Origin: Amoebophrya sp. A120
Taxonomy: Eukaryota; Protista; Dinoflagellata
Direction of reading: 5' to 3'
Assembly: GCA_905178155.1 (NCBI GenBank)
Contig: CAJINV010000021.1
Span: forward strand, 417,050 to 481,049
DNA length: 64,000 nucleotides
A program made the position numbers and the translations under genes. Of the stretch, positions 2,419 to 63,357 are shown piece after piece (the first letter of the stretch is position 1; every line of letters starts with the position of its first letter). Below the pieces are notes generated by a model. The model did no database searches and had not been told where the DNA came from. It was given only the letters and a program-made list of their open reading frames with translations.

Positions 2419-4788
2419 ATGAGGAGGCCGCGGTGGTCTGCTCTGGTACAGTGTGCGCTCGTACTTGCTGAACTCGCTGCAGGCTTCATCTACCTGGACA
2501 AGGACCTCAAGTCCGCTGGCTCTACAGGCAAGCTGCTGCGAAAGCAAAAGGACGAGGGCAGGAACGACATCAATTTCAGCAAGGGCTTCTATGACGAACT
2601 TGACCCACAGGCGACACGGCCGGCGCCTGAGAAGATGAAGCTGTTGACCCTCGATCGTCGTGTAAGCAGAGACTCGATCGCAATCGGCGGCGATGGGACT
2701 ACTGCGTCTGCAGAGGGGAAGCAGCTGCTCTGTGCGCTGCGTGACTCGGGTCGAGTTTGCGTTCCCGTTGTGGGAGACGACAAAAGGAGAAGCTGCGTCG
2801 CGAATTCGAGCGAATGCCACACAGGAGCAGCCGGGCGGCGAGGACGATGCAGCAGCAACTTCCTCTTTTGCGGCTAAGAGTAGGAGACTATCACTTTCTT
2901 CACCAGAACAAGAGTCTCTTGCAGCGGAAGCACAAGGAGCCCCCGACCCCGAGCAAGAAGACGCCTCTACTTTCTACCGTCCGCCCCTGGTGGGGAAAAG
3001 CTGCGCGATCGTGTCGAACAGTGGCGCCATGCTTTTGCACTCCTACGGAGACGAGATTGACGCGCACGATTTCGTACTGCGCATGAACCGAGCGCCGACG
3101 CGAGGCTTTGAAAAACACGTGGGGAAGAGGGAAAGCATTCGCGCGGGGTGGGACAGCACGCAATTCTTGAGGGCATTCTGTACTGAACGAGGTGCGGCAC
3201 TAGAAGCGACGGGAACGTCTTCAAGCGGCGTCGCGGATGAATCAGTGATTGAAGGAGCGAAGAACAGCAGCTCTGCTGGAGGTGCGTCAGCGTCGTCGCG
3301 CGAAACCGTCTACGTTCCTGAAGAGTTCATTCCGAGTCCCGAATGCATGCAAGTAACGCAAAATGAAAACAACGAGCAGGACGTGCAGACCGAGCTGAAA
3401 ACAGCCGCAGCTGCCCCACCAGACTTGTCAGAGCACACTGTTGCTTCTGTTGCCGAGCAAGAGAAGAGACGAGGGAGCATCAGCTCAACACGACCTCCCC
3501 TAGTTGTACCGTTCATGAAGACGTGGCAGAACGTCGGCATCATAGACGACACTTCGATCACTCGCTTCCTCCAGGAGCAGTATGGCGCTTCTGAGGCGTT
3601 GGCGTCTCTTCAGGGTGGCGGTGGAGAGACATCCGGGGCTTACTACGGCGTCATCTTGCTCTATGGATGTGTCAGAGTTGAGATCGACAAAGTTGAAATA
3701 ACTTGTAATGCATAAAATGGATACCATTTGGAAGCCCAATTTCCAAGCGGCGCATGACAAATTTCCGGAGCATCGGAATCCAATTTGTCGTGCTGTTTGG
3801 GCACAGAAGACCGCTTCTGTCATGCTCCTTTAGCAGCTCTTTTCCAAACCCTAAATAGGCTCACAATCTGCCTCGCTTGCCATCCCGGCAAGAGAGGCAA
3901 TTCATGCCTTGCAATTTATGCATGAGACATTATTTCAACTTTGACGATTTCAATTCTGACGCCTCCACATGCTCGGCTACTGCGACCACGTCGATTTTTA
4001 CGAGATGGCACCGTCGGAAGCGGCCCTGATATGCAAGAAAAAACTGTATGCGGGTAAGTCTGTAAATGCAAAGCTGCATGCGACACAGTTACTGTTACAC
4101 TTGTCATGCTAGTACAACCCACCAGCCATGAGGTCCTATTTCATGTGCGTTTTCATGTACTAGCTATGCATGACGGGATTTTTTCCTTGTCAAGCAGAGC
4201 AAATTTGTCATGCTGTCAAACGAAGACACCTATAGTAACACAGTTTTTTTCTTCGATACCTGACGCAACAGAACCACTACTATTCATCATTCTTTGGTGG
4301 CGAGATCCAAGACGAGCGGCCAAGTACGGAGAACGAACCCTGGGGCCGGGGGGCCTTGACGAACAGCTTCCACGCGTGGGTCCTATGCATTGCAAATATG
4401 TCTGGGTCTGTGGAAGATTGCGCGACTTGTCCTGCTCGGCCAGCACCACCCAAAAGCCTCTCAATTTTTTTTTTTTTGTGTTATGCAAAAACACAGTTAT
4501 TTCTCATGCAGAATAGCAATAGACAACACCTTCTAGCACCGCAGACGAAACTTGTTATGCTGGACCGTCAACTGATTAATTGTGGCGTCCTCAAGATGAG
4601 CCAACTAGCGTCACATGTTTCCGGAACCACATCGATGACATGCTTGCATTTGATAGGTCCGCGCGGAGCACGATTTTTTTCGTCGAGTGGCAATCACACC
4701 AGCGGAAGAAAGCCTCCGAACAGGGAAGCTGCGCATCCAGGGGCTCTCAACACTCACGGAGGAGGACTGCGCAGGTGCACCAAACTGA
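2419..4788 (+). CDS. GT29 sialyltransferase-like protein, copy 1 (3 TIR introns; one apparent extra G at 2748-2750)
   Basis: Hydrophobic N-terminus; sialylmotif L (CAIVSNSG...EIDAHDFVLRMNRAPTRGFEKHVG). After splicing: motif S (SGAYYGVILLGYCDHVDFY), NHYY and a VS-like HAWVRAE. The frameshift is evident against copy 2. Confidence 0.85.
3662..3969. mobile_element. TIR intron
   Basis: TIR TATGGATGTGTCAGAGTTGAGATCG/CGATTTCAATTCTGACGCCTCCACA; duplication TGCTC. The paralog shows the empty site (TTGCTCGGATACTGC, about 7395). Confidence 0.93.
4030..4258. mobile_element. TIR intron, family B
   Basis: TIR TATGCAAGAAAAAACTGT/ACAGTTTTTTTCTTCGATA; duplication CCTGA; homologous to 11082-11302. Confidence 0.92.
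4384..4655. mobile_element. TIR intron
   Basis: TIR TATGCATTGCAAATATGTC/GACATGCTTGCATTTGATA; duplication GGTCC. Removal gives HAWVRAEHDFF, matching the uninterrupted paralog HGLLRAEHDFF. Confidence 0.9.
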
Positions 4789-5482
4789 AAATTTGGTGCG
4801 GTTGCATTCTTTCGCTTTCATCTGGCACCCGTAGAAGTGCAGCGAGCGCGAGCTGGTGAACCGCCCGCGAGGGCGGCGCGGGGAAACCCGCGAACGCCAC
4901 GAAATCGTGGACAAAATAGAATTCTACGAAAGCCATGCGATAAGGTCAGGACACACAGAACAGAGTTACATAATGCATGGGACGAGTCTGATTTTCATTT
5001 TTTATTTTTTACACGCTGCACCACCTCCACCAGGGTGGAGGAGCAAATACTTCATGACTTGGGAGAATAGACACGAACAAGTACTTTACTACTGTCGCTC
5101 GGAGTAGATGTAGAAGAAGTGACACCTGTAAGTTGTTCTTTGATAGCACCACCGCTCGAGATGAACGACGGAATGCGCAGCGTCAAGCTAGTGTAGTTGT
5201 GGAATGTCGAACTGACAATGTGCGTGCACCGCAACGAGGGGTTAGTGGAGGTTTTGGTACATGACCACACAGACAAGAGGGCGGAGCGGAAGATTAAGTA
5301 TGTTCGTTCAACGCCGCCAGATAGACACTGCACGTCGAGAAGATCAGCAGTGATATGGTGCTACTAGCGAAGATCCAGCAGGTATTTTTTGCTGTGGGTA
5401 CTATAGGAGAGCTAGAACAACTACAACTTCTAGGAGAGGTACTTCTACCAGAGGCCGCGCCGCTCCACCAGAGTCAGAGACC

Positions 5483-8072: not shown

Positions 8073-8882
8073 GAATGATGTACCGAAGATTTGGGGCAGT
8101 CATCTCTTTCTTGCATTCTAGCGCTTCGTCTTCAACAATCAACGATACAAGTGCAGCGAACGGGACCGCCTGCGAAGCTGGACCGCCAGCACTCGCGAAC
8201 GCCGCGGCTCGTGGGTGATCGTGTCTACGTCATGGACGCACGTGAAAAACAACATCAAATAAAAGTGATGTAGTTATGAAGTCAGGGATCAAGAACAGAT
8301 TCTCGGCGAAAATAGACCGCTTGTCGCTCCATATCAATTGGTGGTCGGACGAGTATCCATCATCCAATCGGACGCATTCATCTTCATATAGTAGAGCTGT
8401 GCGCTACAAGAACATCAACTGCGCTGCGTTAGAAGCTGCAAAGCCTGCTGCTCTTGCAGATGCGAACAAAAGCTTTTGAGACCACGAAGGCGCTGACAAT
8501 TTTACGAGCCTGCGTTCTACTTTGGAGAAGTAGTAAACCTGTTGTGGATAGCTTGGCAGCATCAAAGCCGAAAACTCATCCTCATGCTAAGCCTATGATT
8601 ATGGCAGGAAAACCAGATAAAGGTCGTAACTATGTGTATGTCAATGTGCATCTGGTAGTGGTACATCTTCGAAACCAAGAATCGCCTTTTTTTATTTGTC
8701 ACCTACTGGGCCCGTGCCGTCGTCATTGTGCGGAACCAAAAGTATTCGGCATCGGCTTTCCAGTACGATACAAGACGAGGCTCGAATTTTTCAGCACACT
8801 CCTCCCGGCTGGAACATCTATCTAAAAGTATTGCAACTGCAAGATTTATTCGGATGATGAAAGTAAGAACTACAACTACACG

Positions 8883-11800
8883 ATGGCAGCGACACATGGC
8901 AGGCGTTTTCGCGTGTTGGCGCTCCGCTCAGGGAGTTCGTTTTTGTTTCTCGTAGTCTTGCACCGCCTTGTCATCTTCATGCTTCACGAAACGCTGCCCG
9001 CCGCTGCCACGGACAGAACAGCCAGGCTAGGGAACACTGAGGAAGATGATGCTGTGCGTCTGGTGGGTCAACAGGGAGGAGATGAAGTGCAGCCGCAAGA
9101 GGACTTTGATGCTGCCGATCCAAGACCAACGGAGAGACCACCCGATCCTGCAGATGCAACTCGTCTTCAAGCACATAGACAAGCTGCGCAGGAGAGGAAC
9201 CGACGCGATGTGGAAAATAACATCAACACGGACGACGAGGTGTCAAGAGCCAGTACATCTCTATCAGTGCTCGCTGTAGCCGAGCATGCCGAGATGGATC
9301 AAGCAACTCCAGTGGGAGATCTGCCACAGCAGCTCGGCGCAGCGCGACTAGGTTCCGACCGGGCCGCTGCCCCTCCAACGCGGGGCGCTCCGCCGAGAAG
9401 AAAAAATCGCGTGAGCGGCACGAGAACCGAGCGTGATTCTTCTATTGTTCCTGGGGTACGAAACTACGCGGAGCCAATGTCTCCCGGAACAACAAACGCC
9501 GACCCGTCAGAGGACCACGGGGATAAAAATGCTCTAGCGACTGAGCGAGAGAAACAACATTATCGAGGAGGTGAGGCTGATAATCTCACTGGAGTAGATG
9601 CTGGAGGTACAGCAACTGTTCATCGCTCGGAGGATCTGCAAGAGGACGAGTTGTACAACGACCCTATGATATCCGAACTGCAGCTTTCGGCCGCCACCAC
9701 CAAAAATCCGGACGAGAAAACGAAGCCTTCGGACCTGGACAGCTCTTTTCGAACCCGGATAAAGATCGTGGACGAGGAACTGAAAGAGGAGAATGTGGGT
9801 TCCTGTTTGACCTACGTGTGCAGCGTGTCTACTGGGGGTGGGGGCGGGTCCGCCGCGACCAACGGGTACGACTTTCAATACACACTAGATGTGGACAAGC
9901 CTTGCAAGCTCACCAGCCCGGACACCACGGGCGACAACGCGAGTTGCGAGGCCGTGTGCTGCAGCTACTTTTACTGCTTCGTGAACCTACGCGATCTCGG
10001 GGTCGACTACGAGATGGCGGGGCTGAACGACAAAACCCGCATATTGCGAGGAAGAATCCGCCCTCCCCATATGCATATCGAAAAGGTATGTTTCCGAAAA
10101 TTTGTGTTGCTGATTTGAGACCACAAATCGCGTCTGTCTTGCAAGAAGACAAGCGCAGAGGCTTCCGCGCCGGTATGGAAGCGATTTGGCATGCTGTTGC
10201 GCCTAGGAAGCAGCCGCTTGTAATGCTAAGCAACTAGACGTAGACCCAACGAGCGCCCCTATCTAGGCCGAGGATCTGGCGGCCGCAATGCCCTCCTGCA
10301 ATACAAAACTCAAATACAGCATCACAGATTTCGGCTTTGATATGGGGAGGGGGAATTTTTGCTTTCGATACCGCACAGGCGTAGCCTTCAACGCCTGTGC
10401 GGACTATCCCGTGTAAAAACGTCCGCACCCCAGAGTTGTCTTGCAGATTTGCAATGACAAGAACATTTGTGATGCGCAGCCCCATGACAGGAAGTTCCCA
10501 TCGTGTTTTGAAATTTCTATAATGCTGTAAACAGAATGAGGAGCTGGGTTTGTAATGCGGCAGTCCTTGCTAACCTGCACTACACTACGAGCTGCAGCTT
10601 GTCATGCGTGACTCCCAAAGTTTCTGGGTTTGTGTTGCAAGGTCCCCATGATCTTGACTCTGGGGTGGGGACGTTTTTACTCAGGATACGGGCCAGCGAA
10701 CCGTCAAGTTCCTCAAGGTGCCTGCCTTCGAGGACCAGGGCGGGGGCCCCGGGGAAACCGCGGGCGACAACCGCATCGAGGTGGACAAATTTCTCGAACT
10801 GGAGAACTTCGTGTATGGTGTTGTCAAACGTTACATTCTCGAACTATTTCGTGTATTTGTGATGCAAGAACAGCAACAGTTAAATCGGCAAGCTTGCCAC
10901 TGTCGCATCACAGATTTTGCACAGATTTACATGCTGTTATAGCGCCTCGGAGATTTGTCATGCGAAGCAGCTTGATCATCTGGCCGCATAAGGTAGTTCT
11001 GCATGACAAATGTATGCAACAGCTGAGGGTGTAACGCTTGAACACGCCATATCGTGTCCGTGCCCGACTGCTACCACCGAATATGCAAGAAAAAAACTGT
11101 GTAAGTGTAACTCTGTAATGCAGAACACGCAACAGGAACAGAGTTACACCTGTGCCTGTCATGCCAGACAGCCATGAAGTCCCCTTTTGATGTGTGTTTT
11201 CCCTTACAAGCCACGGATGACAGGTTATCTCTGTCATGTACAGCAAATTTGTAATGCTGTCAGCGAAAGAAAGTTACACTAACACAGTTTTTTTCTTCGA
11301 TACCGAACGGGCTTCTTTCACTACCCAGTTGTCGGGACCGAAACCAAGCACGCGCTGCAAGTGCTGAAGCGGCAGAAACAAGTGGACAGCAACGTAGACA
11401 CCACGGCTTCCGGCCCGGTCGACTTCGACAACTTTTCCCTTCGCGAGCACCTCCCGGTGGCCTCGGCACTGACCACGCGAAATTTGCCGGACGACTCTCC
11501 CACCATCGACGAGATCCGAGACGCCGCGCGGACCAACGCGCAGGTGGCGAACAACGACGAGACCCTGGAAGTCCAACTTGGGCTACGCGGGTTTTACAAC
11601 ATCCATTCGCACGCCTTCGCGTGGGAGGACCCGATATTGAAGGTGCAAGGCGAGGGAAAGCTCGCGGGGGATATCCACCAGCAACTCGGCAAGAAGCGCG
11701 ATGAGTACAAACCGATGGATTTGTCCGTTGCGAACCCCGTTCAGGGCCCGAAAGCCGTCCTCGGGAAGACGCTTCGTCTGGTGGTCGCGGATTCCCGGGC

Positions 11801-14800
11801 CCACTGGCACTTGCCAAAGTGGAGTAAACGGTACGAGGGGATGAAAACTGGTGCTACTGGGGGTGGAGAACGAAGCGGCGCCAGCACCTTTTCGGCAAGC
11901 GACTACCAGCTGCCCTACACGCGGGAGGCGGAGCTGGCTTTCGCGGAAACGGGCAAAAAAGACGGCATCCCGATCAAACAGTGTTGCTCTTTCATCGTCC
12001 AGGCCATGACCAGTCCGAACTTCCTCAGTAACGACTTGGAGCTGACCGAAAAGTTTGTCGTTCAGAACTGTGTGGTGTTTGCCAAAAACATGCATGAGCA
12101 TCTGTTCGGCAAAGAACCCACTGCGGCTGAGCAGGCAGCTATTGATGCGGCAACAACTCCCGTGGGGCCGGAGGCTTTGCCGCCTGCAGGTGTAAGAAAT
12201 AACGTCGGCGCCCCGGAGGTTCCGAACGCTGACTGTGAGGTGGGACCCTGGGCGGCGGTCGGGGCGTGCTCCAAGACTTGTGGGATCTACGACAATACCC
12301 AAGTGCGGATCCGGCAAGTGACCTACCCCCAAAGCGGCAACGGGAAAAAGTGTCCCGCGCTGCAAGAGACCGTGCCCTGCACGCTCGAGGCGTACACCGG
12401 GGAGTGCAGCGTAGATTGCGAGGCGACCGACTGGTCGCCTCCTGAGTACGGCTCCTGCAGCGTGGGACCGATAAAGGGTCCCGGGGGTGCGGTTCTGTTC
12501 GCGAAGCGGTGCCGGAAAACCCGCATATGCATTGCAAATGTATCGCACTAAAGTGTAAAGTGTATTACAAAGTGCCTTACTTCGTATGAATAAAATATGT
12601 TTTTTTAGCTTAGGATGGCGATTTGTAATGCGTTGTATCTGCAATTGCTGCGAGCGCGATACTTTTGCAATGCATACCGCACGCGGGAGATCAAAACCCC
12701 ACCGACGGGGCCCGACGCAGCCCCCTGCCCAGGGAACAACGAAGAACTGGAGCAAGCAAAACTCTGCACCATCAACGACGATACCTGGAAAGAGTGCTGC
12801 GAGGATATGGCTTGCTCAGATGTTACAATCTCAAACGTTACAATAGAATCTGGAATTTGTCTTGCATGAACAGCATGAGTACCATACAGAGACTTGGGCT
12901 TTTTGCAATACAAATTTCGTCAGAATCTCATGGGGTTTGGGGCTCCGAAACTTGTCATGCGCGCCCCTTTGGGAGTAGGCCAGATGTTGCGGATTTTGCA
13001 ACACAAGTTCCAAACTCTATTGCAACGTTTGAGATTGTAACACCTGAGCGGGTTATGGAGGACAACGCCGGTGCGGAGTGGACCGAGTGGACGGCATGCA
13101 CCAAGACGTTATCAAATGTAAAAATGTCTGGGTCTGGACGGTTAGAACTTGTCATGCTAAATCTGAATGATGCAAAAATCTGTGTTGCGTGAGTGCCAAA
13201 AGCTGTCCGCTTTTGACCAAGTTGAGAGGGAGTATCTCATGCAGGAAAGGCATGACAGAGACCTCACAAAATCTGTCATGCTGGGTCTCACATTCCAGAC
13301 CTCATGGGTCATGGAAAACCTGCATCACAAATCTTGCATTCTTCCAGACCCAGACATTTTTACATTTGATAGACGTGCGGTGGCGAGGACGAAATGAAAT
13401 CGCGCACGAAGACCGAATACAAATACCTGATCCAGGACCCGGTGCAGTGCGTCAGCGAGGTGACACGGGACACAGCCCGTTGTCACGAGGGGCCGCAGCC
13501 GGACTGCCCACGGGACTGCAAACTGAGCCACTGGACCGAGTGGGGGGAGTGTTCCAGCACCTGCGGAAAAGGCCAACACACGCGGACAAGAACAGTTGTG
13601 CAGCAACCCATCGGGGACGGTGAGCAGTGCCCCGATAGTGCCACTGAAAAAAGCGCCTACGAAGAAACAGGGGAGTGCGAAAACACGATTGAATGCGTCC
13701 CGAAAGTGGACTGTGCACTCGAGGAAAAGTATGTCGCTCCTGTTGCCCAGGAAAATAATAACGGGAACGACAACACCGAAGAAGGCGGGTGGTCCCCCTG
13801 CAGTAAAACCTGCGGGGGCGGCGCGAAGTTCCGCATCAAGTTCGTAGACCAGCTGCCGCAGGGATCGGGGAAGAGCTGCCAGAAATTGTTTGGCAAGGGC
13901 GAAGGCATCACTGATGCCGCCGTGGTGGCCAAAGAAGACATCACTATCAGTTGGGGGTACATCGACGCCGGGGCCAACGAAATAAAGGGAGCACACTACA
14001 CCGATGGAACGCCAGTTGAAATAATAAATGCGGAGCAGGAGCAGAGCCAGAGCAGCGGCAGTGTTAGTACAAGCAAGCTCAAAATGTACATGAAGGAGAC
14101 AGCCGATTGCAATCGGGAGGTGAAATGCCCGGATCCTGTAGATTGCGTGATGAAAAACTGGGAAGCTTGGACGGAATGCTCCAAGAGCTGCGACGGCGGT
14201 ACGCGGACGCGCGCACGGTACGTAAAAACTCCGCCGAAGGAGGGTCGCCCGAAATGCCAAGACGTGGACCTGTACAAAATCGAGAATCTCCAGAAGGGCT
14301 ACGCCAACGGGACGGCGCCGCACTTTGAATGGCTCTCGACGGGCGGGGGCGGGCAAGAACAACACGACGGAAAGCTGCACCAGAAGGAAACCGCGCGCTG
14401 CAACGAGATACACTGCCCCTGCGCGATGGAAGAGTGGGCCGCGGATTGGACGACGTGCAGCGTCACGTGCGGCCCCCACGGGAAACAGACGAGGGAGAGA
14501 AAGGTGAGTACCCTGGGGGGCTACGCGGACCTGACCGGCTGCAAAAGTCTTTTCGGAGACGAGAGCAAAGCGGGTGTGCAACACGATAATGGGGTGTACA
14601 TCATACGCGACGCAGACGGGATTACTCGGCAGTGGGAGGAAAAATCGCCGCTGGAAAATTCGATACAGAAGGAAACGCGCAAGTGCAACAACTTTCCGTG
14701 CGACGACCAGCCAACAGGGGACGCTGCAACTACGGTAGCCCCGCCCGAGGACGGTCCACCGGCTTGCGTCCTAGACGAGCACTGGTGGAAAGCGGACTCC

Positions 14801-15442
14801 TGCGGCTGTCAATGGAGGGGCGTGAGTAGTCCCGCTACGGGCACGTGTTTCAATGATATCCCACGAAGAAAGTGTTGCAGTTACACACTTGATGTTGCAA
14901 TTGCAGCAACACAAATTTTCTCCGCATGGCAGAGAAAACTTGTAATGCAGAGTTCATAAGAGAAAACACGTATGAAACAAGGCTTGAAAGCATTTCGTGC
15001 ATCACAGAGGTTGTCTGTCTTGCGTGTTCTGCAGCACAATGCGTAACACTTTTTTCGTTGCATAAATGGCGAAGACGGCGCAGTGTACGCGGTCTATAGC
15101 AACGCTGCCGCGAATTGTCCGGCCTGCAAAGGCCGACCTGCGTCTGTCAGCACGCCCTACATTTTGTCCGACAAATCCTGCGAAGACGACAAATGCAGGG
15201 TGGGTTCCGCCCGTGCCCCTGCGTTCGCGAGCGGGTGGGTTCCGCCCTTGCCTCCGAAGTCGGGGGAGACGGTGCCCGGTTACCGAACCCTGGTGAACAC
15301 CGATATTAGAGACCTGTTTGCGTCGCAAGAGGCGTATTGGAACTACGTGAACGACATCGCAGCGCAGCAAGCGGTGCTGGAGGCTTCCCAAAAGAAGCAG
15401 CAGTCCAACTTCTTCGGGTTGCCCACATTTGGTCTTAGGTGA
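8883..15442 (+). CDS. Large secreted/surface thrombospondin type-1 (TSP1) repeat protein, 8 TIR introns
   Basis: Hydrophobic N-terminal segment; repeated WxxWxxCSxTCG...RxR motifs. One continuous frame results from removing 8 elements, e.g. WTEWTACTKT|CGG and CRKTR|TREIK. Confidence 0.88.
10042..10370. mobile_element. TIR intron, family A
   Basis: TATTGCGAGGAAGAATCCGCCCTCCCCATA/TATGGGGAGGGGGAATTTTTGCTTTCGATA; duplication CCGCA. Confidence 0.92.
10405..10688. mobile_element. TIR intron, family C
   Basis: TATCCCGTGTAAAAACGTCC/GGACGTTTTTACTCAGGATA; duplication CGGAC/CGGGC; homologous to 57256-57544. Confidence 0.92.
10814..11051. mobile_element. TIR intron, family D
   Basis: TATGGTGTTGTCAAACGTTAC/GTAACGCTTGAACACGCCATA; duplication TCGTG. 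Confidence 0.92.
11082..11302. mobile_element. TIR intron, family B
   Basis: TATGCAAGAAAAAAACTGTG/CACAGTTTTTTTCTTCGATA; duplication CCGAA. Confidence 0.92.
12526..12676. mobile_element. TIR intron, family E-like
   Basis: TATGCATTGCAAATGTATCGC/GCGATACTTTTGCAATGCATA; duplication CCGCA. Confidence 0.92.
12806..13057. mobile_element. TIR intron
   Basis: TATGGCTTGCTCAGATGTTACAATCTCAAACGTT/AACGTTTGAGATTGTAACACCTGAGCGGGTTATG; duplication GAGGA. Confidence 0.9.
13110..13371. mobile_element. TIR intron, family F
   Basis: Perfect TIR TATCAAATGTAAAAATGTCTGGGTCTGGA; duplication GACGT; reverse-complement homolog at 28358-28618. Confidence 0.94.
14857..15064. mobile_element. TIR intron
   Basis: TATCCCACGAAGAAAGTGTT/AACACTTTTTTCGTTGCATA; duplication AATGA/AATGG; removal joins to ORF 15083-15442. 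Confidence 0.87.
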
Positions 15443-21814: not shown

Positions 21815-24800
21815 ATGACGTTCCGCCGGTGGGTCATCTTTCACTTCCTCTTTCGCACAAGCAAATCTTGTCTCCTGCAAGAAGTGTCGCTATCGCAGAA
21901 GCTGTTTCTGCTTACGGCGGGGGCTACCTATGAGGCGAATGCGTTGGATCCGGAGAAGAGTACTAGCCGGTCAGGATCGGGTCCGCCGGGCTCCTTGTCG
22001 GAACAAAGCAACATTTTATTTCCAGGGCAAGAAGATGGCCGCTTTCTTCACGATGATGTTGGAGATAACATCGAGAAAAATTCGAATTACGTCGACATTA
22101 GCCAGGACGCCGACTTTTTCTCTCCCCAGAGCGAAGAAGATGTCGAGCAGGCCGCAGACTTTCATGAACGATCATCCAGCGAGAACCCTCGGAAGATGGG
22201 GCGCGGTGAAGGTCGTACGCCGGCGGTAGCAAGGCCCTCATCTCCGGTAAGTGCGGAAGCTGCACCAGCCGAAGAGATCCCAAATGGTCAGGAAGCGACC
22301 TCTTCATCGTCGTTCGCTGCAGCGGGAACAACCGATGGTGCGGGTGACGACAATATTAAAGCCGTCAATTCACCATCATCTCCTGGAAAGGTGCAAGTTG
22401 AAATTGATGCAGAAGCGAACCTACGAACTGCAAAAGTATCGTAAGTTGTACTCGTAATGTAAATGCACCATTAAAAATGATTTCCTTAGCATGAGAAATG
22501 AAATTTGTATTTGTAAATGCGGATTTGACTTAACAAGAAAATTTTAAATGCACGATTGCAAATGCAATACGAGTACAGTACGATTTTGCACAGGATAGAA
22601 CCAGTACGTCTCGAAGCAAGAAGTGCGGCAGATGGTGCGCGACTTGATGCTTCTTGAGCAGCACGCTGCAGGTAGAAGTAGCACTGACGCCCGGCTGCAG
22701 CGTCTGGAGGAGGAGAATCGGAGGCTGCAGCAGGAAGTGGAGAGGCTTTCCTCGAAAGCGGACTCGTTCCAGGAGGAAACCTGGCGGTCGTTCCAGCGGC
22801 TTCGCTTTGTCGGGGCCCAGGTGTATCACATGCTTTTCTTCAGCCTGTTATGCATTTCAAAAGTATCGCATTCGCACGGCACTGCCGCTAGCAACATAAA
22901 TCGCATGTTCTTGACACATTTCCTCATGAAGCAGAGCCGAGCGCTGGATTCAGGTAGGAAAGCAAATTTTTGCATTGCTGCAATTTTTAGTTTTGACGAG
23001 AGCGATACTTTTGCAGGGGATACCTGTGGATTCTCATCGGCACGTGTGAGAGTGCACAATCGTCCCTCCTCCTCATTTGTCATGCAAGATCCACAATCCA
23101 AATCCAAATGCCGCCTCGATGTCGATGTGGCAGTGTTTGCATGACAGATCCCGGAAGCCAAAGCAGTACTGCAGGACTAGCACTAGGCGCGTGAATTTGT
23201 CATGCGCTTCAGGAGGCTGCAGCTGCACATGTGCATGTGCTGCTGCTGGTGTTTGTACTGCTATGGATGCCATACAAATCAGGGGGAGCAGAAGTTGTGC
23301 ACTCCCATAGCACGGCACGGAGCAACCAGGACATTACCTTCGCGCTGATCGTTCTGGGGTTCCTGTATGGAGTTCTCACACTTTGCGCTGTCAGCTGTTA
23401 CATGATTTGTCATGCAAAGGCGCCATCGCCGTCATGTCATCTTCAACCTCCACACGATGAAGCTGGCTCACGTGGCTGATTATTGAAGCGTGGCAAAAAT
23501 TCGTTTCAAATTGTAATCAATTTATTATAGAAGTACTCTCTGGCAAATTTTGCTAGTTGTACAGGTCTGGCATTCATGAACTCACTGAAGAGTGCGTGAG
23601 GAGCACGGATGTAGCTAATGAGTAATGACAATGTCTGAGAATGCCATACTGTGTGCTGCGTTGTTGGTACCGCCGCACCTTGGTACTTGGCAATATTTGC
23701 TGGCGCTGATCGTCGTCGACGCTACTTCTCGAAAAAGCGGTCTACAACTGAGGATGAGCTCGCTCGTACTACTAGTGGTCGCGCCATAGCTGCAGAAAAT
23801 GCGAGCTCGAGGGCCTCTCGTCTCCCCAGTAGTGGCGAGACAGTTACAACCAGGCGCGCAATGCAGTCGACGAGAATTCTTGCGTCGTCTAACCCTGGAG
23901 AGGACTTGCTGCCTGCTGTTGCCGAAGAAGTTCTTGCGAGTGGGGGCGAGATGGTGAAAGCGGCCGCAGCGGGACCGGAGACCACCGAATTTTCGCGACA
24001 CAACATAAAGAACGATACAAGCGAGGGTGCGGGCGATCCTGATGTTCCGCACGTTGGCGTTGGCCGCGTGGCGCAGGAAGCTGCCGGCGGCGCAGCGGAT
24101 GGCCGCGCAGCGGATGTTCATGTCGCGCCCTCCGAAGAGGAAGAGCCAGACGAGGACACCAAGAAGAACTACCAAGAGAAGATGAGTAAGGTTGAAGAGG
24201 ACGAAGAGGATGACGCGGACCCGGTTCCGTATGATTTTATCCTTCAGGGCACCTTGTCGTGCGTGTGTCAGGACGGCGAGTCCGCGGAGGGACGCTTCTT
24301 TACGGTCTGCGTTGTGTTGTACATGATGAGCTCTCTGCTAGCAGCGCCTCCCTTCGAGGCCTACACATCTTGATGCAAGTTTCGAGACGTGACTGAGCTG
24401 CTGCAGGGCAACCCCGGGCTCCCGCGGCTGCAGAACTGGATTGAGGTAACCGCTCGGGCGTTGTGGCACGTGGTCCCATATGGCGTTCTCAAACGTTACA
24501 TTCTCAACTGTTACATGATTTGTCATGCAAAACTCCAATCAGATTCGACGCGATCAAGCTGTTGCGCATGACAAATTCTGGAAGGCCCAAACAGGCTGAG
24601 AATCTGTGCCAAATCTGTCATGCAAAAGGCGCTATCTTTCCCCTTTCAGTTTTGCCATTCTTGCACCACAAACTCATGTAACAGTTGAGAATGTAACAGT
24701 TGAGAACGCCATATCCCAAACTTCTGCTTTGTGCTCGTGGCGGTCCTCCCCGCGGCCTCCGATCCCCGCGTGCGGGCGAAGATCCGACGTGCGCGACTTT

Positions 24801-32766: not shown

Positions 32767-32796
32767 GAAGTGACCGATTATATCGGCATTCGCGTC

Positions 32797-40617: not shown

Positions 40618-43600
40618 ATGGTCGTCGGTGAAGACGTACTAGATTTCTTTGGAGATAACATTTCGCACAGCAGCACGTCCCAACCCGAAAACTCCACCCG
40701 TGTTGGTGGTTTGCCGCACCAGTCACCGGCCACCGGTACTGCTCCTACTACCACCTCTACGACCAACATGGCAATCGACGACTGGCTAGCAAGTTCTCCT
40801 CCGCGGAGCCATAAAATGCCTGCGACGACCGGAAATAACTACACAAAGCCGGTAGCAGCTGCGTCTAGCAATTTTGATGACGATTGGTTGTTCGGATCGC
40901 TGAGTTCTTCTAGCACGGAGAAGAAGAAAAATGAGGGGATCAGTTCCACAGCATCCATGTCGACGTCCACAGGGAACAGCAGCAGCACGGGAAGAACTTC
41001 TACGCCTACCAGTGGCGCAAGTTCTTCTATGCACCACCAGCTTCGTCCGGGCGGGGGCGGCAATGGCAACCTCAACCACAATCCGAGTAGTTCCTCTGCC
41101 AGTAGTTCGTCTAACTCCAGTGCTGGCCTGAGCGATGACTACCTCTACGTCGACTCCGAGACGCAGAGTGTGCAGCTGACAGGAGGGTCGACGTCAGGGA
41201 CAAGTAGAACTACAGCTCGGACGTCGGCTCCTTCTGCGCAACAGATGGTTTCTACGCCGACCACTACTTCTGGTCGCCAACAGGAACTACAGCACGTGCA
41301 CCCTCCGTCTCAATCCTCCCGAGCAGCACAACAGCTACATGAGGACTCATCTTCAAAAGTCGATCCTTTTTACAACAATCTTTCCACAACTACATCAAGT
41401 CGGGTGAGTTCGAAGGAAGGAAACAGCACGAATCAAAGCTTTTCCGTGGAGGACGACGTATGCACTGCAAAAGTACCGTACTCGTAGTACTAATTGCTAT
41501 CATGCATGACAAACATCCCTTTTTAGGTAAATCAGCATCACAAATTCCATTTTTCTTCTTGAAAAAAATTGTGATGCAATTTATACTAGTACGATACTTT
41601 TGCAATGCATACGACGATGTGGGGTACGATGTGAACATCAAGTTGGAGCAAGGTGACGACGAGCACCCAGGAACAAACGCTCATGAGAATAGTAGCAGCT
41701 CCGGCAGTAACAATACTAATTCCGGCACGAAGATGAACAATAAGCCCTCCGGCGCGCCGGAGTATTTTTCCATGGTTTCGAACGACTCACCGCCACGAAA
41801 TCAAGATATGGCGTTCTCAAACGTTACATTCTCAACTGTTGCATGGATTTGTGATGCAAAAACAGCAATAGGGAAAGGGGCGAGCTTGCAAGTCTCGCAT
41901 CACAAATTTGGCACAGATTTAGACGCTGCCTAGCCCTTCGAGACTTTCTCATGCGAAGCAGCTTGATAGTCTGGAGGCTCATGATCATTTTGCATGACAA
42001 ATCATGTAACAGTTGAGAATGTAACAGTTGAGAGCCCCATACAAGAGCAAGGAAATTTTGGAGATTCTCAAATGAGTCCAGAAGTAAACTCATCATCGAT
42101 AGCGAACACAGGAGCTGACGATGATGGAGCTCCTACTTCTGCAGGTGGACCCGGTGCACCAGCTGCGTCCTCGAGTACCAGCAAGCCGTTTTGCTACCAG
42201 ACCTTCGTCACTGAGGTGTTGAAGCACCCCAGTGCCACGCCCACGATACACAACGCCAAGCTGTTTGTGGACCAGGTAAGTATCTTCATATATTAATCGT
42301 TAGAGTGCAAACTAGCCTTTCTCGGCTGGATCCCCTTGTACAGCACGACCACGGAACATTCAGAATGAAGAAAATGAATTTTCTTTGAGGAGAAAACTTG
42401 ATGCAAAAATGAGGCATGATGTACAACTACCTCGCGTTTGCAATCTATCGCGCCCAATAATAAATAATGCAGGTGAACAACCTCGCACCGGAAAAGCGCG
42501 GTGCAGCCATCGCATCCTTCCGAGCTTACATCCCAAAGCTGCATGCAAAACTGATGGAGGCTGAGATCTATGAGGAGTATAATTTTGAGGCAATCAATTT
42601 GTGGTGCTTCTTCTTTCTTGTAGATTGTTGGAATGAATATGAAACTGCGCAAATCTTATTTAAGCATATTTCTATGATCCACCAGACTCCTCGTGGTCCT
42701 CTTCTACATCTAGCAATTACATCCGCACCAGGGCCGACGACCAGTCTAAGCAATACGCGCTCGAAGGGCTGGAAAAGTTTGTCGCGACCAAAATTTACAA
42801 TTCCGTTTTTCGCATCCATCCGGAGGACGATGGTCGACGGGATCGGAACGTCTCCACAAAACTCACCTCGCTCAAGTGGGTCAAGCTGCACCGCCATCTC
42901 GGTACTACTTATATGAATGCGGAATGCCCAACATGTAGTAACAATAATGTGGTCGAGCGCAAAAGCAGATGAACAAAAACTTCTACAAGCAAGTCAGGGT
43001 GTGAGTGTCAGCAGGCACGCCAGCATTATTACGTAGCAGAAAAAAAAAATGAATGTTCTTCGTACGTGTTTCAATTAATTTTTCTATCACACAGACGTGA
43101 GCGAAGCGGTTGCCGAGCACCCAAAACTGGAAGTGGCCAAGGATTTTTTTACGCGGCTGAACGAGTACAAAGCCCCCCGGGACAAGCTGATCTGCCTCCA
43201 GAACGTGTGCAAAGTTCTCCTGACCTGCCTCGAACAGTGCAGTAACGGCTCCTCGGCCGGGGCGGACGATCTCCTGCCAGTGCTGCTTTTCGTGCTGATC
43301 CAGGTCAACCCGCCGAACTTGCACAGCAATTTGGAGTTTATCTCCAATTTTCACCAGCAGCTGGTCGAGGAGGGCTTGTACTACCTGACTACAGTGAAGT
43401 CCGCGTTGGAATTCCTTCGTTCTATGGACCACACGGCCCTATCTAACGTGGACAAGGGCGAGTTTGAGTTTAACTGCGAAGACATTCTGCGCCCCTTGGG
43501 GCTCGCGTTGGAACCCGAGCCGGGGGAACCGGGGTTTCTTGACGGCGGGAATAATGGTGGACCGGGAGGCGGAGCGTCGTCGTCGTCTACCCATGGGAGC

Positions 43601-52615: not shown

Positions 52616-55600
52616 ATGTCCCAGTTTCTGAAGCGGTTTTGCCAGGGCGCCCGGAAGGCGCTGCAACAGGCGAGCTTGAGCACAGAACAGACCGGGCCTG
52701 CTGCAGCACCTTCAAAGCAACCGATCATCTTCGTGATGGGCAACACTTCGTGCGATTTGGATAGTGTCTGTTGCGCTCTCGCCCTGGCCTATCTTTTCGA
52801 GTTGGACAAAACGTCGAAAACAGCAAACATTTCCTACATTCCGCTCCTGAACTACCGCCGGCAAGATTTCCCGAAGCTGCTGCAACAGGCCTACTGGCTG
52901 GAAAAGTACTTCCAAATTTCCGTCGACGATCTCTGTTTCTACGAAGACGCCGTGGCTACCATGTCTGCTAGTATTCCTGCGAAGGACGACGAGAAGGCTA
53001 CCGCTCCTGGTGCAGCCGCGGGACCACCATCACCTGCGTGTTCCTTCCTCCTCGTCGACCACAACGAGGTCGACCCCACACAGAGGGAAACTCTGCGGGG
53101 GAAGGTCGTTGGCTGCGTCGACCACCACGAGGTCAACGCCGGAAATAAAGTGGATCAGTTCCTACGAGGAACTTCTTCTTCCCCAGACGACCCCGCGTTT
53201 GCTTCCTTTCCGCAAATTCTGGACATCCGCATTCCCTCCGTCTGCGGTCCGGAGGCCATCGTTGGCAGCTGCTCTAGCTTGATTTTGGAACGAACAGTGA
53301 AAGTGTACGAAAGTAGGATAGCGACGCCGGCGACGGGTACTACTGGTTTACAACAAACCGAGTTTTTTTCCGAGCTTTTCTCGCTTCTCTCCGGCGCGAT
53401 TTTGTGCGACACGCGAAATTTCGCGGACGCGACCAAGGGCAAATGTGCCCAAGAGTTTTCCGAGCTTTATTTTTCGCTTCTCTCCGGAGCCATTTTGTGC
53501 GACACGCGAAATTTCGCGGACGCGACCAAGGGCGTCGGGGAGTGGCTTCGGGGGGCAACAGCGCAAGAGCTCCGCAAAAGCCCTCCAGCAAGGCATGCCA
53601 CGACCCCAGCTGGATGCTGTCTGACACGCGGCGAGTGGCGCCGCCGCAGCCGTCTGGCCTTAGAGGCCCGGAGCCCGCTCGAAGGCGGGGCTCTGCTCCC
53701 TTTCTAGTAGACCCGGATCAGTTGGGTTCCTGCCTTGGCACGCGGGCAGGGCCTGGGTCGCAGCGGGATGGGAAGACACCCCGTCAGAGGCATTGCCAAA
53801 TTAGCAGACGCGAAGCCGGCCATAAGACTGCCGTCACCCGCGCCGCGGACAGAGGAGTGCGTCGGAACACGGCGCATAAGCCTTGCTGCCCCACTGGCGG
53901 CGGAGGAGCTAGGATGGGGATCCACATGGCCAGCCCCGGCATGCCTGTTGCTCTGAGGCAATTCGACCTGCATTGCTTTGGGTTTGTGCTGCTTCGGGAC
54001 CTCCCCGGGGGACCTCCCCGAGGGACCTCCTAAAACCGACCAAAAGTGGAATGGTTCGGAAAATCTTCGCCCGATGGTATGAGACCTCCTCGTAGAGGTC
54101 CCTTGAGGACCTCCCTTGAGGACCTCCGGGAACGCCTCGAAAGGCCAGACTTCGGCTCGCACCTTTCCGCAGGACAAGGTCAGCACCCCCCACTCCTGAA
54201 GCAAAGTGAACGGCCAACCCCGGAGCCCCGGCCGGAAGGCGGGCGCACGGGTTTCTGCCAACACTGTGGCGGACTTGTAGATCCGAAGCTGCGCATGGTG
54301 GAAACGCGACGCAGCCTGCCGCCCGAAAATAAAAGTTGCGAAATCTGAGCGAAGGGCGCTCAAGCTTCGCCCAAAAACGTCATCCCGCTGGCCAGCGCCT
54401 GTTCCTTCATTGCAACAATGGCCGCGCGCCATGAGCTTCATTAAGAAAGCCAACATGCTTTCCGCGATAGGCGAGCTTCAGAGGCCGTGGCAAATTGGTG
54501 GACAAGACAAGACGGGCGTCTAGCTAGTCTCCGATGTGCTAGCTTTCCTCGCCCGCTTCACCGTCATGCCTCCGGAGCTGCGCAAATTGCCCCAAAAGCT
54601 ATGCGACTCCGTGCGGCGGCCTTTTTACCCGGAGCAGTGCGGCACAACTGTGCGACCGGTCGAGGGCTCACAGTCGGCGCCCGACTCGAGCATGAACCAG
54701 CTTGAATGCTCAAGATCTGTGCACTGTGTGCTGATTCTTTGCTCGCCGATTCTGATGGGCCTTTGCGCGCGCGCGTTCCGATACTTAAAGAAAAATTTGA
54801 AAATATTTCTTGATTCAACAGTTGATCGCGTTATAGCGGGTACTACTGGTTTACAACAAACCGAGTTGTTTTCCGAGCTTTTTTCGCTTCTTTCCGGCGC
54901 GATTACTAAGTGGAAATTTCCCGGAAACCGGAAAATTGAAAAAAATCCCTCTCTTTTGAAGACGACGCTGCGAGTACGACGTCGAGACGCGGTGGCTGCT
55001 CGGCGGGTTGCTGCGCGGATGTTCCTGCTTCTGCTCAAAGAAACCAGTCTAATTGATCCACTCAAAAATCCTCACTCACAGGTACTCACTATACGAAAAT
55101 ATCAAAGCACTCTACAGGTCGAAATCCTTACCCTGTCACGCCGATCCGCCGCCAGCAGGAGATAAACACACACACACGCCACAACTACTTCATTCGCAAA
55201 TCATAGTAGACTCTCCTCATCATAAATCTCTACGCATCAGAAATTCAAATAAAAAACTCAGATCATACAGGCTACCGCTACTCTACATGTGTGGCCCTAC
55301 AGAACCGAGGTGCTCAGGTTCGGAGTGGTCGTAGTCGAGCAAGGTGCCGAAGAGCAGGTGGATCACCAAGAGGACGTGTTGCACCGGGTGGCGCAACATG
55401 TCCTCAAGCTGGTGAGACAATACGGCGCCAGCAGTTCCTGGGATCTCGGTCCAGACGTGGCGGTGGTTCTGGTTGATTTTTTAAGCTGTAAACCTGATGG
55501 GAGAATTTCAATTTGATTTTTGATGTCGGAATGCGGAAGAACCTGTCTATTTGAGAACTTTTTGAAATGATCTGGATTTATGTGATGTTGTGGCGTGTGT

Positions 55601-58018
55601 GTGTGTGGGGATGGTCGATCTTTCCGTCGGCAACCGCGGGTACCTGGTAAGACATTGATGTTTCTGTTTATATCATGATGAGAATGTGACGCGAGCCTGG
55701 ACGCTGATCTTCCCGGACCGGATAGCGAGACGTAGGCGGAGGACTTTTAGCACGTTTGGAGGCGGAGGACTTGGAGGACACCAACAGGGCTGCTTCCTCC
55801 ACGGGACTTCTGCGAAAGGGAGGGAATTTTTTCAATTTTCCGGTTTCCGGGAAATTTCCGCTTAGTAGCGATTTTGTGCGACACGCGAAATTTCGCGGAC
55901 GCGACCAAGGGCGCAAAGTGGTCTGTGAAGGGGGATAAGGATATCCAAAAAAAAATGTTAACATTAACATTTTCACTAGTCAAATTTTTGTCATGTTTTT
56001 GTGTGATTTTTTTTTGTATTTTTTCATGCCAAGTAATGAACTACTGTAGCTACTCGAAATAGAACCCATGGGCAGCTAGCTACAGCTAGACTTCTATGTT
56101 ATTGTTGAGAGCTAGCTAGGCTAAGGTGTGCCGGCGCGGCGGACGTGAAGGAAAACAAGGCGGCCGAGGTGGCGGCCAGAGGTGCGGGGAGACTGGGAAA
56201 CAAGGCGGCCGAGTTGGCGGCTGGAATGAGCCTGCTGAAGGCCTTGGGGCAGTGTGCTCGTTTTTCCTCCGTGCTATCATGCACCATCATAATCGTACTG
56301 CCTTCATCGCAGCCCAGTCTTCAGCTGCTCTTCTTGACTCTAGGGCAGACCGGGGCCAGAGGTGGCCCAGCTTTTGCCTTTCGCCGTTGACCCCAGCGAC
56401 AGAGAAAAAAGGCAGTTTTTTTGAGCTTTGGGCCAAAAATTGGCGCTCAAGCAAAATCGCAAATTCCCGTGCGAAAATGCAGATTTTCAGGCAAATGTTA
56501 ACATTTCGGGCTACGTCCAGATTCCCGCGCAGAAATGCAAGATTTTGGGCAAGTGTTAACATTGGTCTGCAAATTTGCTCAAAAAATGCTCAAAAGTTGC
56601 CATCTTTTTTGCGCAAATGTTAACATCCGGCTCCGGAACGTCCCCGAATGTTAACATTCCCAAAAATGAGCGCTTCCCTGCATTACAAATTGAACATTTT
56701 GAATTTATAAAAGGTGGCAACCCGATCTCCATGGTCGCGACCCGTTGGTGGGCCGACCACATCATCAACCAGACGAAGGCCCGGAACCAGCTGGATTGCT
56801 TTCGAGCATTAGTTGCAAACGAGCAGCGCCACTACCTACGCGCGCACGAAGGCCCACGCACGTCCTCGATGTAGCAGGACGGATCCCGAGACCTTAGCCT
56901 AGTTAGATCAAAACATAAGCTACAGCATTTAGCTTGTTGTCCGTGGGTTCATATGCATAGTATCGCGCATTCAGCGCAATTCCAATGCAAAAAATGATTT
57001 TTTTTTGTCAAAAAACGCATTGAAATTTTGACTAGTGAAAATGTTAATGTTAACATTTTTTTGTTGAATAAAGGAGACTTACGAGACGGCGAAGCAGCTC
57101 TTCGGAGCAGGAACGTCCGCCACAACCAGCACTAGCCTGCTTCCATCCGACGAGGCCGCCTTGTGCCAGGATCTTTTTGACATCAAATTCGACGTGGAGC
57201 GGAATTTGAACCTCGGTGTGTCGGCTTTGCTGGGCGGGGACTACAAGCAGTTTTCTACCCCGTGTAAAAACGTCCCCACCTTCCCAGAGTCAAATTCTTA
57301 TGGACTTTGCGAACACAAACCTAGAAGTTTTGGGAGTCACGCATGATAACTTGCAGTTCGTAGCGTAGTTCAGGTTAACAAGGTCAAGGACAGCCGCGTC
57401 ACAAATCCATCCGCTCGCCTCCCTGTTGATCACATTCACAGCATTACAAATTATGCCAAAACTCGTCTAGAGGACACGCCTCTCTTGTTGGGGATGCGCA
57501 ATCCCCATGACGACTTTGGGCTGGGAACGTTTTTACTCAGGATATTTTCCTATCGCAGTGACACCCTCTCCGTCGGATACGCGACCTTCCCGATCCAGCT
57601 GGTTTCCGTTTTGCAAAAGTTCGATTTAGAAAAAACACTACTGCCTGAAATGAAGGATTTCTGCGAATCAAGAAAAGTGTCCCTGCTCGTGATCCTCAGT
57701 TCGGACCGAAACATGTTGAAACACTTCGGCGTAGGCGTTTTCTGCAACGAGGAAACAGCGGGAAGCGAGGCAAGAAACCTGGCGCTCTCGGCCTTCAACG
57801 CGATCGTCACGTCTTCCGCGACGGATGCGTCTGGGAGTTTGAAAGAGGAGATGGGACTTGTGCCCATCGAGCCGACGGGGGCTAGCGCAACGTCAATATT
57901 TCGGGTGTACGAGCAGCGGAGGGCGGAAAAGTCGCGGAAACAAGTCGAGCCCTTGATTCGCCAGCTGCTGAATTCCATATCGAGTAGTCCTGGGATGACA
58001 ACCATTGACGGCAATTGA
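52616..58018 (+). CDS. DHH-family exopolyphosphatase (PPX1/Prune-like), interrupted by a 1.5-kb duplicated-exon insert and 3 TIR introns
   Basis: MGNTSCDLDS, LVDHN, CVDHH, GSCSSLI, GAILCDT; after splicing DYKQFSY and SRKQV (DHHA2 domain). Confidence 0.88.
53334..54903. repeat. Triplicated exon segment enclosing a 1.3-kb GC-rich insert
   Basis: Copy A 53334-53440, copy B 53456-53534, copy C 54837-54903 continuing at 55873; unrelated sequence at 53535-54836. Confidence 0.85.
54904..55867. mobile_element. Long (964 bp), young TIR element in an exon
   Basis: Near-perfect 45-bp TIR TACTAAGTGGAAATTTCCCGGAAACCGGAAAATTGAAAAAA; duplication GCGAT; empty site visible in exon copies A and B. Confidence 0.94.
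55942..57070. mobile_element. Long (1129 bp) TIR element in an exon
   Basis: TATCCAAAAAAAAATGTTAACATTAACATTTTCACTAGTCAAA and its inverse; patchy symmetry to about 185 bp (CTAGGCTAAGGT 56116/ACCTTAGCCTAG 56891); duplication AAGGA. Confidence 0.92.
57256..57544. mobile_element. TIR intron, family C
   Basis: TACCCCGTGTAAAAACGTCCC/GGGAACGTTTTTACTCAGGATA; duplication TTTTC. Confidence 0.93.
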
Positions 58019-61600: not shown

Positions 61601-63357
61601 TTTTGCAGAACCCCGTTTGTCGAGCTGGACCCGGAAGTGTATTCCTGTCTCGCGCATCCGCTGTGGATTTTCGTTCAGGGGTTTCTGCTGGCAAGAACAG
61701 CTCCTCGGCGGTCATCTGCATCTGCACACCAGCAGACACCGAACCTTTACCACGAGAAGGAGCCCCCGCCCCTGCTCACCGTTCAAGAGGTTGCGGAGCT
61801 TTACGATGCCATGTCGGGGAACGTGGCGGACGTGGCACTATTTTCCGCGTTGGGAAAACTTTTTGTACGGGATTTTGTGCAACTTCTGAACGATCAAGAA
61901 GTTGTTCCAAATAGCTCGCCACAAAAACATCTTCCGCGACTTCGCCCCGTTTTGTTCACACCCGCGGAACTGTGTGTTGTCGCACACGGTTATCCAGGAG
62001 AGAACACCTATCCTCATCCATTTTCTGCATGACAAACGCTGGACTTTATGCAGGTTTTACATGACATACCAAACGAAAAAATGGGCCACAGCCAAAATTT
62101 CAAAATCTTTTTTTCCCGATTGAGGTGGCCGATGTGAGTTCTCAAGACGGAGCACTTCTGCCACTGCGTATTTTCCCTGGCCGGGGCGAGGATCACGGGT
62201 AGGTGGGCCTGCAGATGGCCTCCACCTTCGACGTCGCACCACGGGAATATCGGCGACCTATTGAAGGCAAGTGCCCTCCATCTGACCTGCCTGGTGGCAA
62301 GACTATTGATGGCTTCTCGGTCGGAACTCCAGGAGAGGCATCTGGGCACCACTGAAGGCACCCCCCTTAACGGGGTGCTTTCAGGGGGTGCCCTTCGTTG
62401 CTGTGGCCGATTTTTCGGAAACGGCCATACCATCGGTGGAAGGGGTTTCCGAAAAATCGGCCACAGCAGCGCAAGGCCGTCAATTTCGTGGCACCCCTCT
62501 GCCCTGTGGCCGATTTTTCGGAAGTGGGCGGCTTCTGCAGGACAAATGTCGAGAATCAGCTCGCATGGCCCCCCCGCCGGCGCGGCTTTTCCCAGCCCGG
62601 CAGCGCCATAGCCCAACGCCCCGTCTGGCCGAGGGTTGCAGAGGATAGCGCAGAGCCGCTTTGGCCGCGGCCTGCCAACGATTGCCGCCTACTGATATGC
62701 GCCATTTCCGCCGCGGGAATCCGTCGTCCCCGGGCCTGCGGGCCGGCCCGTCCGGGAAAAATTTTGAAAATTTGGCTGTGGCCCATTTTTTCGTTTGGTA
62801 TGACAAATTGGATGGGGATGGATCTTTTTTCTGTGGATAAAGGTCTGGCTGACGGAATTCAGTTACTGGAAATCGAAATCGAAACTGCTCCACCAAGGAC
62901 CACGGTGGGAACGGCCAAGAATGCTGAAGCGGCATATGAAAATGATCCACGTCATCAACTGCAACGTCAAAGAGCAGCCGACCAAGCTGAGCTTCGACAA
63001 GGTCTCCAGAGCGTCTGGCATGCGTTGAAAAATCACGTACCAGCGCTGGCGCCGTCTGACCGCTTGTTGTTGATCAATGCTATCGTGAAAACCGGTGAGT
63101 TGTCAGACGACTCGGAGTATCCTGTGCAAAAGTATCGTACTCGTAGTAATCGCAAACATGCATTACAAATCTTGCTCTTAAGCTAAATCCGCATTTACAA
63201 ATTTATTTATTTCTCATGCTGAGGAAATTTGTATTTGTAATGCATTTATACGAGTAGGAGTACTTTTGCAATGCATACGGAGTTCAGGCACACGATTGAA
63301 ACCCATGTTGTGAATGAAAAGGAACAGGATATCATTCAGGCAGTTGGGGCGCTTTGA
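58614..63357 (+). CDS. Large uncharacterised protein with a presequence-like N-terminus; GT-AG intron from 60183, 2 TIR introns
   Basis: ORFs 58614-60260 and 60347-62032, then AHG|LADGIQ and DDSE|FRHTIE after element removal. The junction at 60183-60425 is ambiguous (alternative acceptor or 1-nt indel). Confidence 0.68.
61991..62839. mobile_element. TIR intron containing a nested element
   Basis: TATCCAGGAGAGAACACCTATCCTCATCCA/TGGATGGGGATGGATCTTTTTTCTGTGGATA; duplication ACGGT/AAGGT; 110 bp without the nested insert. Confidence 0.87.
62067..62800. mobile_element. Nested 734-bp TIR element
   Basis: About 39-bp near-perfect TIR TACCAAACGAAAAAATGGGCCACAGCCAAA; duplication TGACA; internal repeats CTGTGGCCGATTTTTCGGAA. 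Confidence 0.94.
63118..63277. mobile_element. TIR intron, family E
   Basis: TATCCTGTGCAAAAGTA/TACTTTTGCAATGCATA; duplication CGGAG. Confidence 0.92.

Follow-up and report, generated by a model that had tools for sequence, protein, structure and literature searches.

Analysis of a 64,000-nt stretch of the Amoebophrya sp. A120 genome (contig CAJINV010000021.1, forward-strand positions 417,050 to 481,049; here called the window and numbered from its first base) revealed genes interrupted by introners and, inside these elements, a recurrent motif, GCATNACAAAT. Every window gene with a long frame is located on the plus strand. From inverted repeats and target duplications, 31 elements were delimited (Table 1). 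The elements are non-coding, have TAT...ATA termini and were inserted with a 5-bp stagger. As a rule, they start with TA(T/C), and they are 110 to 330 bp long, apart from three of 730 to 1130 bp. The 5-bp target site duplication (TSD) is perfect in 26 of the 31 elements, has one mismatch in four and is lacking in one. Excision of the element together with five bases left at least 59 open codons on each side in 28/31 cases, compared to 14/31 with four bases. The Pfam M17 match of a leucyl aminopeptidase gene spans two introners, covering profile positions 135 to 195 and 197 to 254 and then position 258 at residue 5. The window elements match the published A120 introners in anatomy and family lengths. 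In the accessible parts of the published accounts (PMC7789003; PMC12130899), A120 introners have terminal inverted repeats (TIRs) of TAT, seven variable bases and AAA, direct repeats of 3 to 5 nt and non-canonical borders. The same TIR start, short direct repeats, non-canonical borders and co-oriented genes were found here, and subfamily lengths of 109, 149, 209, 236, 251 to 262, 279 and 305 to 321 agree with the A120 family lengths listed in the part of PMC12130899 available. In run X1, summed contig depth over the elements was far above the background of about 45. Three contig pieces from run X3, whose RNA status is a guess, end within 6 bases of element borders, with no junction listed. Reads with a partial fit from the raw RNA runs X9 and X10 (217 and 1, respectively) were confined to a single element.

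The window contains 34 exact matches to GCATNACAAAT (20 plus, 14 minus), whereas 0.17 +/- 0.38 matches are expected from 100 dinucleotide shuffles of the window. The original prediction, made from the sequence letters, had described the motif as recurring on both strands with G, C or T at one position. All 12 positions it named fall within 2 bases of an exact match, all 34 matches have G, C or T at the variable position, and the lack of enrichment over a composition-matched background that would have spoken against it was not observed. Inside the 31 elements, which comprise 9,056 of the 64,000 bases, lie 29 of the exact matches, distributed over 19 elements; the remaining five lie in one insert of about 1.4 kb (about 37160-38532). 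In line with the earlier remark on exons and GT-AG introns, no exact match was found in window exons or in the seven canonical introns checked (approximate borders), where one degenerate site was detected at 7102. The degenerate form (T)GCA[T/A][G/C/T]ACA[A/G]A(T) yielded 113 sites in 31/31 elements, compared to 8.7 in Markov sequence and 24 in the other 54.9 kb of the window; the matrix was trained on the same 31 elements, and the 113 sites include eight terminal TIR variants. Across about 53 kb of host sequence outside the elements and the insert, there are 15 sites, most of them weak. The motif is a 10-bp word with three to six copies per short introner, on either strand.

An independent check was performed on related contigs, for which 88 loci were pulled from one assembly by one TIR pattern and 87 were used (856 kb including overlaps). 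The element detector made 483 calls there and one false call in a 126-kb control. The sample is biased to family D, with 188 of the 464 short elements. Relatives of 27/31 window elements were present. TSDs matched at 0.90 for 5 bp versus 0.24 to 0.30 for other lengths, and no target base preference was found at the insertion sites. TAT stands at 881 of 926 ends of copies found by their interior, and A occupies positions 11 to 14 in 0.77 to 0.89 of family-weighted ends. The window-trained matrix identified an internal site in 458 of the 464 short elements. The density was 16.4 versus 1.4 sites per kb, and 721 of the 883 sites outside called elements cluster like undetected elements. The positional analysis proposed with the original prediction revealed a set distance from the ends: no site centre lies within 32 nt of an element end, the peak is at 38 to 50 nt, the distribution is mirror-symmetric, and the motif begins about 28 bp or more inside each end. 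Short words are thus repeated inside the TIRs on both strands and placed relative to the ends, as in a subterminal array. Up to a length of 450 bp, the density is 1.7 to 3.4 sites per 100 inner bases; above it, in a class that includes nests of short elements, the density is 0.6. A TIR pattern had no match in viral contigs. In some families (window 12526, 32049 and 41459; L036:4079), end bases 3 to 14 resemble a motif variant in register (TAT + 7 + AAA), and across families the matrix score peaks weakly at end offsets 2 to 4.

The 31 window elements form about 13 to 14 groups, and most between-group alignment scores are near null. Comparison of 16 subfamily consensuses with the motifs masked gave between-family scores of 12 to 25, the null level; between-family spacer identity is 0.31 versus 0.26 for shuffled spacers. 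At the motif flanks, information content drops to near zero. A pairwise comparison of window families (motif 0.90 versus 0.70 identity) was inflated by ascertainment and was therefore replaced by a tree test with a permuted control. For this test, 463 copies were found by their interior, so that the ends were not ascertained, and removal of 28 copies with more than two TSD mismatches left 435 copies in 16 subfamilies. Internal branches represent lineages that copied again, and terminal branches represent such history plus time resident in a gene. The six core positions change at 0.10 to 0.11 of the background rate on internal branches and at 0.37 to 0.39 on terminal branches, the terminal rate being higher in 15/16 subfamilies (Wilcoxon p=0.0006). 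The column-permuted control gave 0.98 and 1.00, respectively, with a minimum of 0.84 in 200 permutations. The variable position changes at the background rate yet avoids A (2/56 internal and 15/118 terminal changes). The terminal TAT changes at 0.00 on internal and 0.13 on terminal branches, in the latter case below the core (p=0.0008), AAA at 11-13 rises from 0.01 to 0.24, and TIR positions 15 to 30 rise from 0.27 to 0.59. The terminal tips are held in single copies at both intron ends. These results indicate that purifying selection maintains the motif as a conserved island in mutually unalignable families; it is a real and functional, though apparently undescribed, cis element of a known intron class.

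Same-strand copies are spaced 31 to 33 bp apart in 23 of 98 pairs and in seven of nine broad families (family-level permutation p=0.011; window alone, seven families, p=0.026). Opposite-strand spacings are not significant at the family level (p=0.22 and 0.84). Two long elements, window 55942-57070 and L026:14019-15212, interrupt open frames, contain one or two sites and repeat their own TIR word inside; the latter has TIRs of the same type as family I, which is short and rich in motif copies.

The evidence favors transposition over splicing, because internal branches show about 3.5-fold stronger constraint, no preference for strand or 3' end was found, and long exonic elements are nearly free of copies. 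The core, rising from 0.10 to 0.37-0.39 beside the inner TIR, is released much like the inner TIR. On balance, the motif probably serves in double-stranded DNA as the docking site of a single transposition protein common to the families, either a transposase or a helper. The original prediction had left open a transposase or a dedicated splicing factor as the common trans-acting factor; a common factor is supported by the purifying selection across families, with its binding still putative, and the splicing half is disfavored by the branch, strand and long-element data. One protein would recognize the motif as a duplex and load on the phased sites, which, about three helical turns apart, face the same side of the DNA. 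By bridging or bending, the loaded protein would help to pair the ends of a 110- to 330-bp element and would thereby decide which copies multiply. Splicing would read mainly the paired ends (TAT, then AAA at 11-13) and not the interior motif, and the element ends are likely the splice signal.

The branch-point consensus is yUnAy. Because the TNAC core of the motif resembles it and outward copies often lie 30 to 50 nt from the 3' end (the last sense copy in 176 of the 289 introns having one), a role as a branch point or as a pairing site for small nuclear RNA (snRNA) was tested. The host strand was called for 322 copies (246/257 neighbors agree; 9/9 window calls correct). For a U2-type intron, a sense copy near the 3' splice site would be expected in every case; such a copy is lacking altogether in 33/322 introns and lies beyond 60 nt in another 103. 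An antisense copy is lacking in 25. Pooled site strands in the related contigs (464 sense versus 504 antisense, from noisy strand calls) would be symmetric anyway under unbiased insertion, and the pooled test was therefore replaced by one with one-strand families. Subfamilies 7, 9, 10 and 15, whose consensus sites are all on a single strand, occur in exon orientations of 26:25 (transcript with none : with all copies). Decay per copy is equal by strand (sense 142/4572, antisense 132/4865; p=0.27), and decay is no lower at sense sites close to the 3' end (0.40) than at antisense sites close to the 5' end (0.30; p=0.27). An Rfam scan of the window gave no match, and neither of two short snRNA words occurred in the loci searched. 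The presence of one-strand families in both exon orientations, together with the 33 introns without a sense copy, indicates that the motif is not a strand-specific RNA signal, and a branch point or snRNA-pairing site is very improbable. In line with the earlier view that the elements could work either way round, they lie in genes in both orientations. An orientation-independent splicing aid appears unlikely, to a lesser degree. A factor would bind the motif duplex, in folded intron RNA or in DNA during transcription, and aid excision; well-spliced copies would survive and then found new subfamilies. In its favor, the main predicted pairing partner of 76 of 156 consensus sites is another motif copy, the terminal-branch core rate lies under its neutral prediction (see below), and U1 snRNA was not detected in Amoebophrya according to the accessible part of PMC7789003. 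The one-strand subfamilies 7, 9 and 10 are incapable of motif-motif duplexes, yet they are exonic, as are long or decayed elements with zero to two sites, and the excess of constraint on internal branches also speaks against this explanation.

A docking site for a transposition protein has to contend with several observations. Long elements with perfect ends and TSDs moved despite having zero or one site; the motif is thus not required by every element. No Pfam match was obtained for 18 open reading frames (ORFs) of the window's long elements and inserts or for the six frames of an 812-bp element, and section 16 of PMC7789003 reports no transposase in A120. Two of nine broad families alternate strands at 47 to 50 bp, and other common spacings (39 and 49) are not whole helical turns. 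TSD decay at 16 of 269 third-codon sites, an underestimate, places about 0.4 of terminal change after insertion, so that a motif neutral once inserted predicts 0.46; the observed 0.37 to 0.39 is lower, and mild constraint after insertion is possible. Decay shows no clear rise with TSD mismatches (0.38, 0.40, 0.44), and 25 apparently non-exonic copies, a noisy class, are not more decayed (0.31 versus 0.42, p=0.095). A modest role of the motif after insertion, a minor splicing role included, is therefore possible. Alternatively, a chromatin protein or DNA-binding protein of the host could bind the motif and keep the element open or free of silencing, without belonging to the transposition complex. 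This would be consistent with the symmetry between strands, the selection at the level of lineages and the occurrence of one motif in several TIR families. We regard it as rather improbable, since host sequence beyond the elements is almost devoid of the motif and since the motif keeps a set distance from element ends. The TAT...AAA ends and the 5-bp TSD common to all families make their common ancestry likely and could suggest that the motif is a function-free relic of one ancestral element. This is hardly credible, as layouts differ among families, masked scores are at the null level, conservation falls off at the motif edges, and selection is ongoing within subfamilies (core versus permuted control). 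Colinear descent, which the original prediction had named as its possible undoing, is contradicted by the unalignable flanks and the within-subfamily constraint; common descent may account for the origin of the motif, not for its upkeep. As a tentative variant, a single phased array, bound by a DNA-bending helper common to all, could have arisen by convergence in unrelated short introner families, whose family-specific TIRs would be read by a different factor. With the array, elements of insufficient length for looping could join their ends, and this would power the intron invasion; long elements would loop freely, lack the array and carry repeats of their own TIR word in its place. The helper could, in addition, label the element for a U1-less splicing machinery.

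No description of the internal motif was found in the literature searched (mostly non-subscription) or in 14 supplement files, and the literature containing the exact word concerns unrelated subjects, judging by listings. A considerable proportion of the non-canonical introns of this lineage are A120 introners, and section 16 of PMC7789003 poses the mobilizing enzyme and the splicing route as questions. The motif divides the introner problem into two signals: the interior array, on which selection acts mainly through copying, and the ends, which are maintained in each copy. It would connect a large number of TIR families listed as unknown with a single factor, and it supplies a specific bait for the mobilizing protein: two sites 31 to 33 bp apart, with A at the variable position as the negative control.

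Table 1. Elements and insert in the 64,000-nt window, with motif sites and particulars of each (strand as '.').
Feature	Position	Strand	Remarks
Introner, family A	990..1311	.	5 motif sites; TSD ACTGT
Introner, family B	3662..3969	.	5 sites, exact match 3752; within sialyltransferase-like gene
Introner, family C	4030..4258	.	3 sites, exact match 4203
Introner, D-related	4384..4655	.	4 sites, one a terminal variant
Introner, family A	10042..10370	.	Inverted vs 990 element; 6 sites
Introner, family E	10405..10688	.	5 sites, all antisense; transcript without sense copy
Introner, family F	10814..11051	.	4 strand-alternating sites, about 48-50 bp apart
Introner, family C	11082..11302	.	4 sites
Introner, family G	12526..12676	.	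1 internal site, 2 terminal variants
Introner, F-related	12806..13057	.	4 alternating sites
Introner, family D	13110..13371	.	6 sites; top read depth in run X1
Introner, C-related	14857..15064	.	5 sites
Introner, family G, decayed	22422..22597	.	1 site
Introner, G-related, decayed	22849..23022	.	Weak sites only
Introner, family H	23045..23309	.	4 sites
Introner, F-like left end	23366..23648	.	No clean 5-bp TSD; 1 site
Introner, family F	24479..24713	.	4 sites
Introner, family I	27783..27947	.	5 sites
Introner, family D	28358..28618	.	Inverted vs 13110 element; 6 sites
Introner, family I	28669..28835	.	4 sites
Introner, family G	32049..32191	.	Leucyl aminopeptidase gene; flanked by Pfam M17 positions 195 and 197
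Introner, family G	32382..32563	.	Leucyl aminopeptidase gene; M17 profile unbroken across element
Introner, family G	36956..37105	.	4 sites
Irregular insert	37160..38532	.	TAT-type left end, no matching right end; 9 sites at 37392-37794
Introner, family G	41459..41611	.	5 sites, 2 terminal variants
Introner, family F	41807..42041	.	4 sites
Long TIR element, 964 bp, TAC ends	54904..55867	.	1 site only
Long introner, 1129 bp	55942..57070	.	Coding exon of DHH-family gene; 2 sites; internal repeats of own TIR word
Introner, family E	57256..57544	.	Inverted vs 10405 element; 2 sites
Short introner, 110 bp, family L	61991..62839	.	2 sites 32 bp apart; hosts nested long element
Nested long TIR element, 734 bp	62067..62800	.	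1 site; own TIR word repeated
Introner, family G	63118..63277	.	4 sites, exact matches 63160 and 63233

Tandem sialyltransferase-like genes occupy window positions 2666-7470, and a gene for a long thrombospondin-repeat protein with eight introners occupies 8826-15442. The first sialyltransferase-like gene carries introners; the second, which has a GT29 match, has none at the matching site. In 37125-39290, two inserts, one of about 1.4 kb and one of about 0.7 kb, are bordered by three occurrences of a 35-bp exon stretch. The larger, 37160..38532, gave no Pfam match and is possibly the product of one-ended transposition or an assembly artifact. A similar exon duplication (53341-55912) surrounds a 1.3-kb GC-rich insert in the DHH-family gene, and the 964-bp TIR element is located in its second copy. 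Direct repeats of about 49 bp flank 1.35 kb of GC-rich sequence at 46475-47925, where six ORFs gave no Pfam match. Upstream of a protein kinase gene, a 311-bp palindrome (48727-49037; 99.7% perfect) may be an assembly fold-back. At 62062-62805, the nested long element is inserted into a motif copy of its host element, with the duplication TGACA. At the locus L012:10082-13630, an inverted pair of 206-bp elements encloses nested introners over 3.1 kb, and an almost perfect duplication spans all of it; the locus is possibly a composite transposon.

Subterminal transposase-binding arrays are known from Ac and En/Spm. Introners and subterminal arrays have both been described before (accessible parts of PMC9860276, PMC11282704, PMC11707139, PMC3660474, PMC2836005 and bioRxiv 2020.10.14.339549). 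For A120 introners, the available text of PMC7789003 and PMC12130899 describes the ends and contains no internal motif, spacing or selection on the motif; PMC7789003, in its accessible part, argued against general transposase-mediated movement. With Ginger/Tdd TDD-4/5, as described in the accessible part of PMC2836005, introners share TIRs and a 5-bp TSD, which fits TDD (Ginger1/2, 4 bp). However, Ginger/Tdd elements have TGTNR termini, a target preference and an integrase gene; introners have TAT ends (only 8/926 begin TGT) and no base preference at the target, and no integrase-like DDE transposase was found in the 18 ORFs and six frames scanned. In the available part of PMC12130899, A120 family 38 is listed as Ginger, with a 5-bp TSD, TA/TA termini and weak integrase-like similarity; as that paper itself states, the family lacks Ginger termini. 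Interiors of MITEs (miniature inverted-repeat transposable elements) can enhance transposition, and like the Stowaway MITE Ost35, introners would be non-autonomous elements whose interior promotes their own movement; Ost35 belongs to one plant family and depends on a mariner transposase, and the accessible text describes no shared phased motif (PMC3660474). Subterminal binding arrays aid synapsis, and those of piggyBac/piggyBat and hAT resemble the introner arrays in having short words repeated inside the ends, on both strands and several per element (PMC11707139, accessible part). In these systems, each word is specific to one family and its own transposase. Unlike such arrays, the introner word is common to at least nine families with different TIRs and fills the whole interior.

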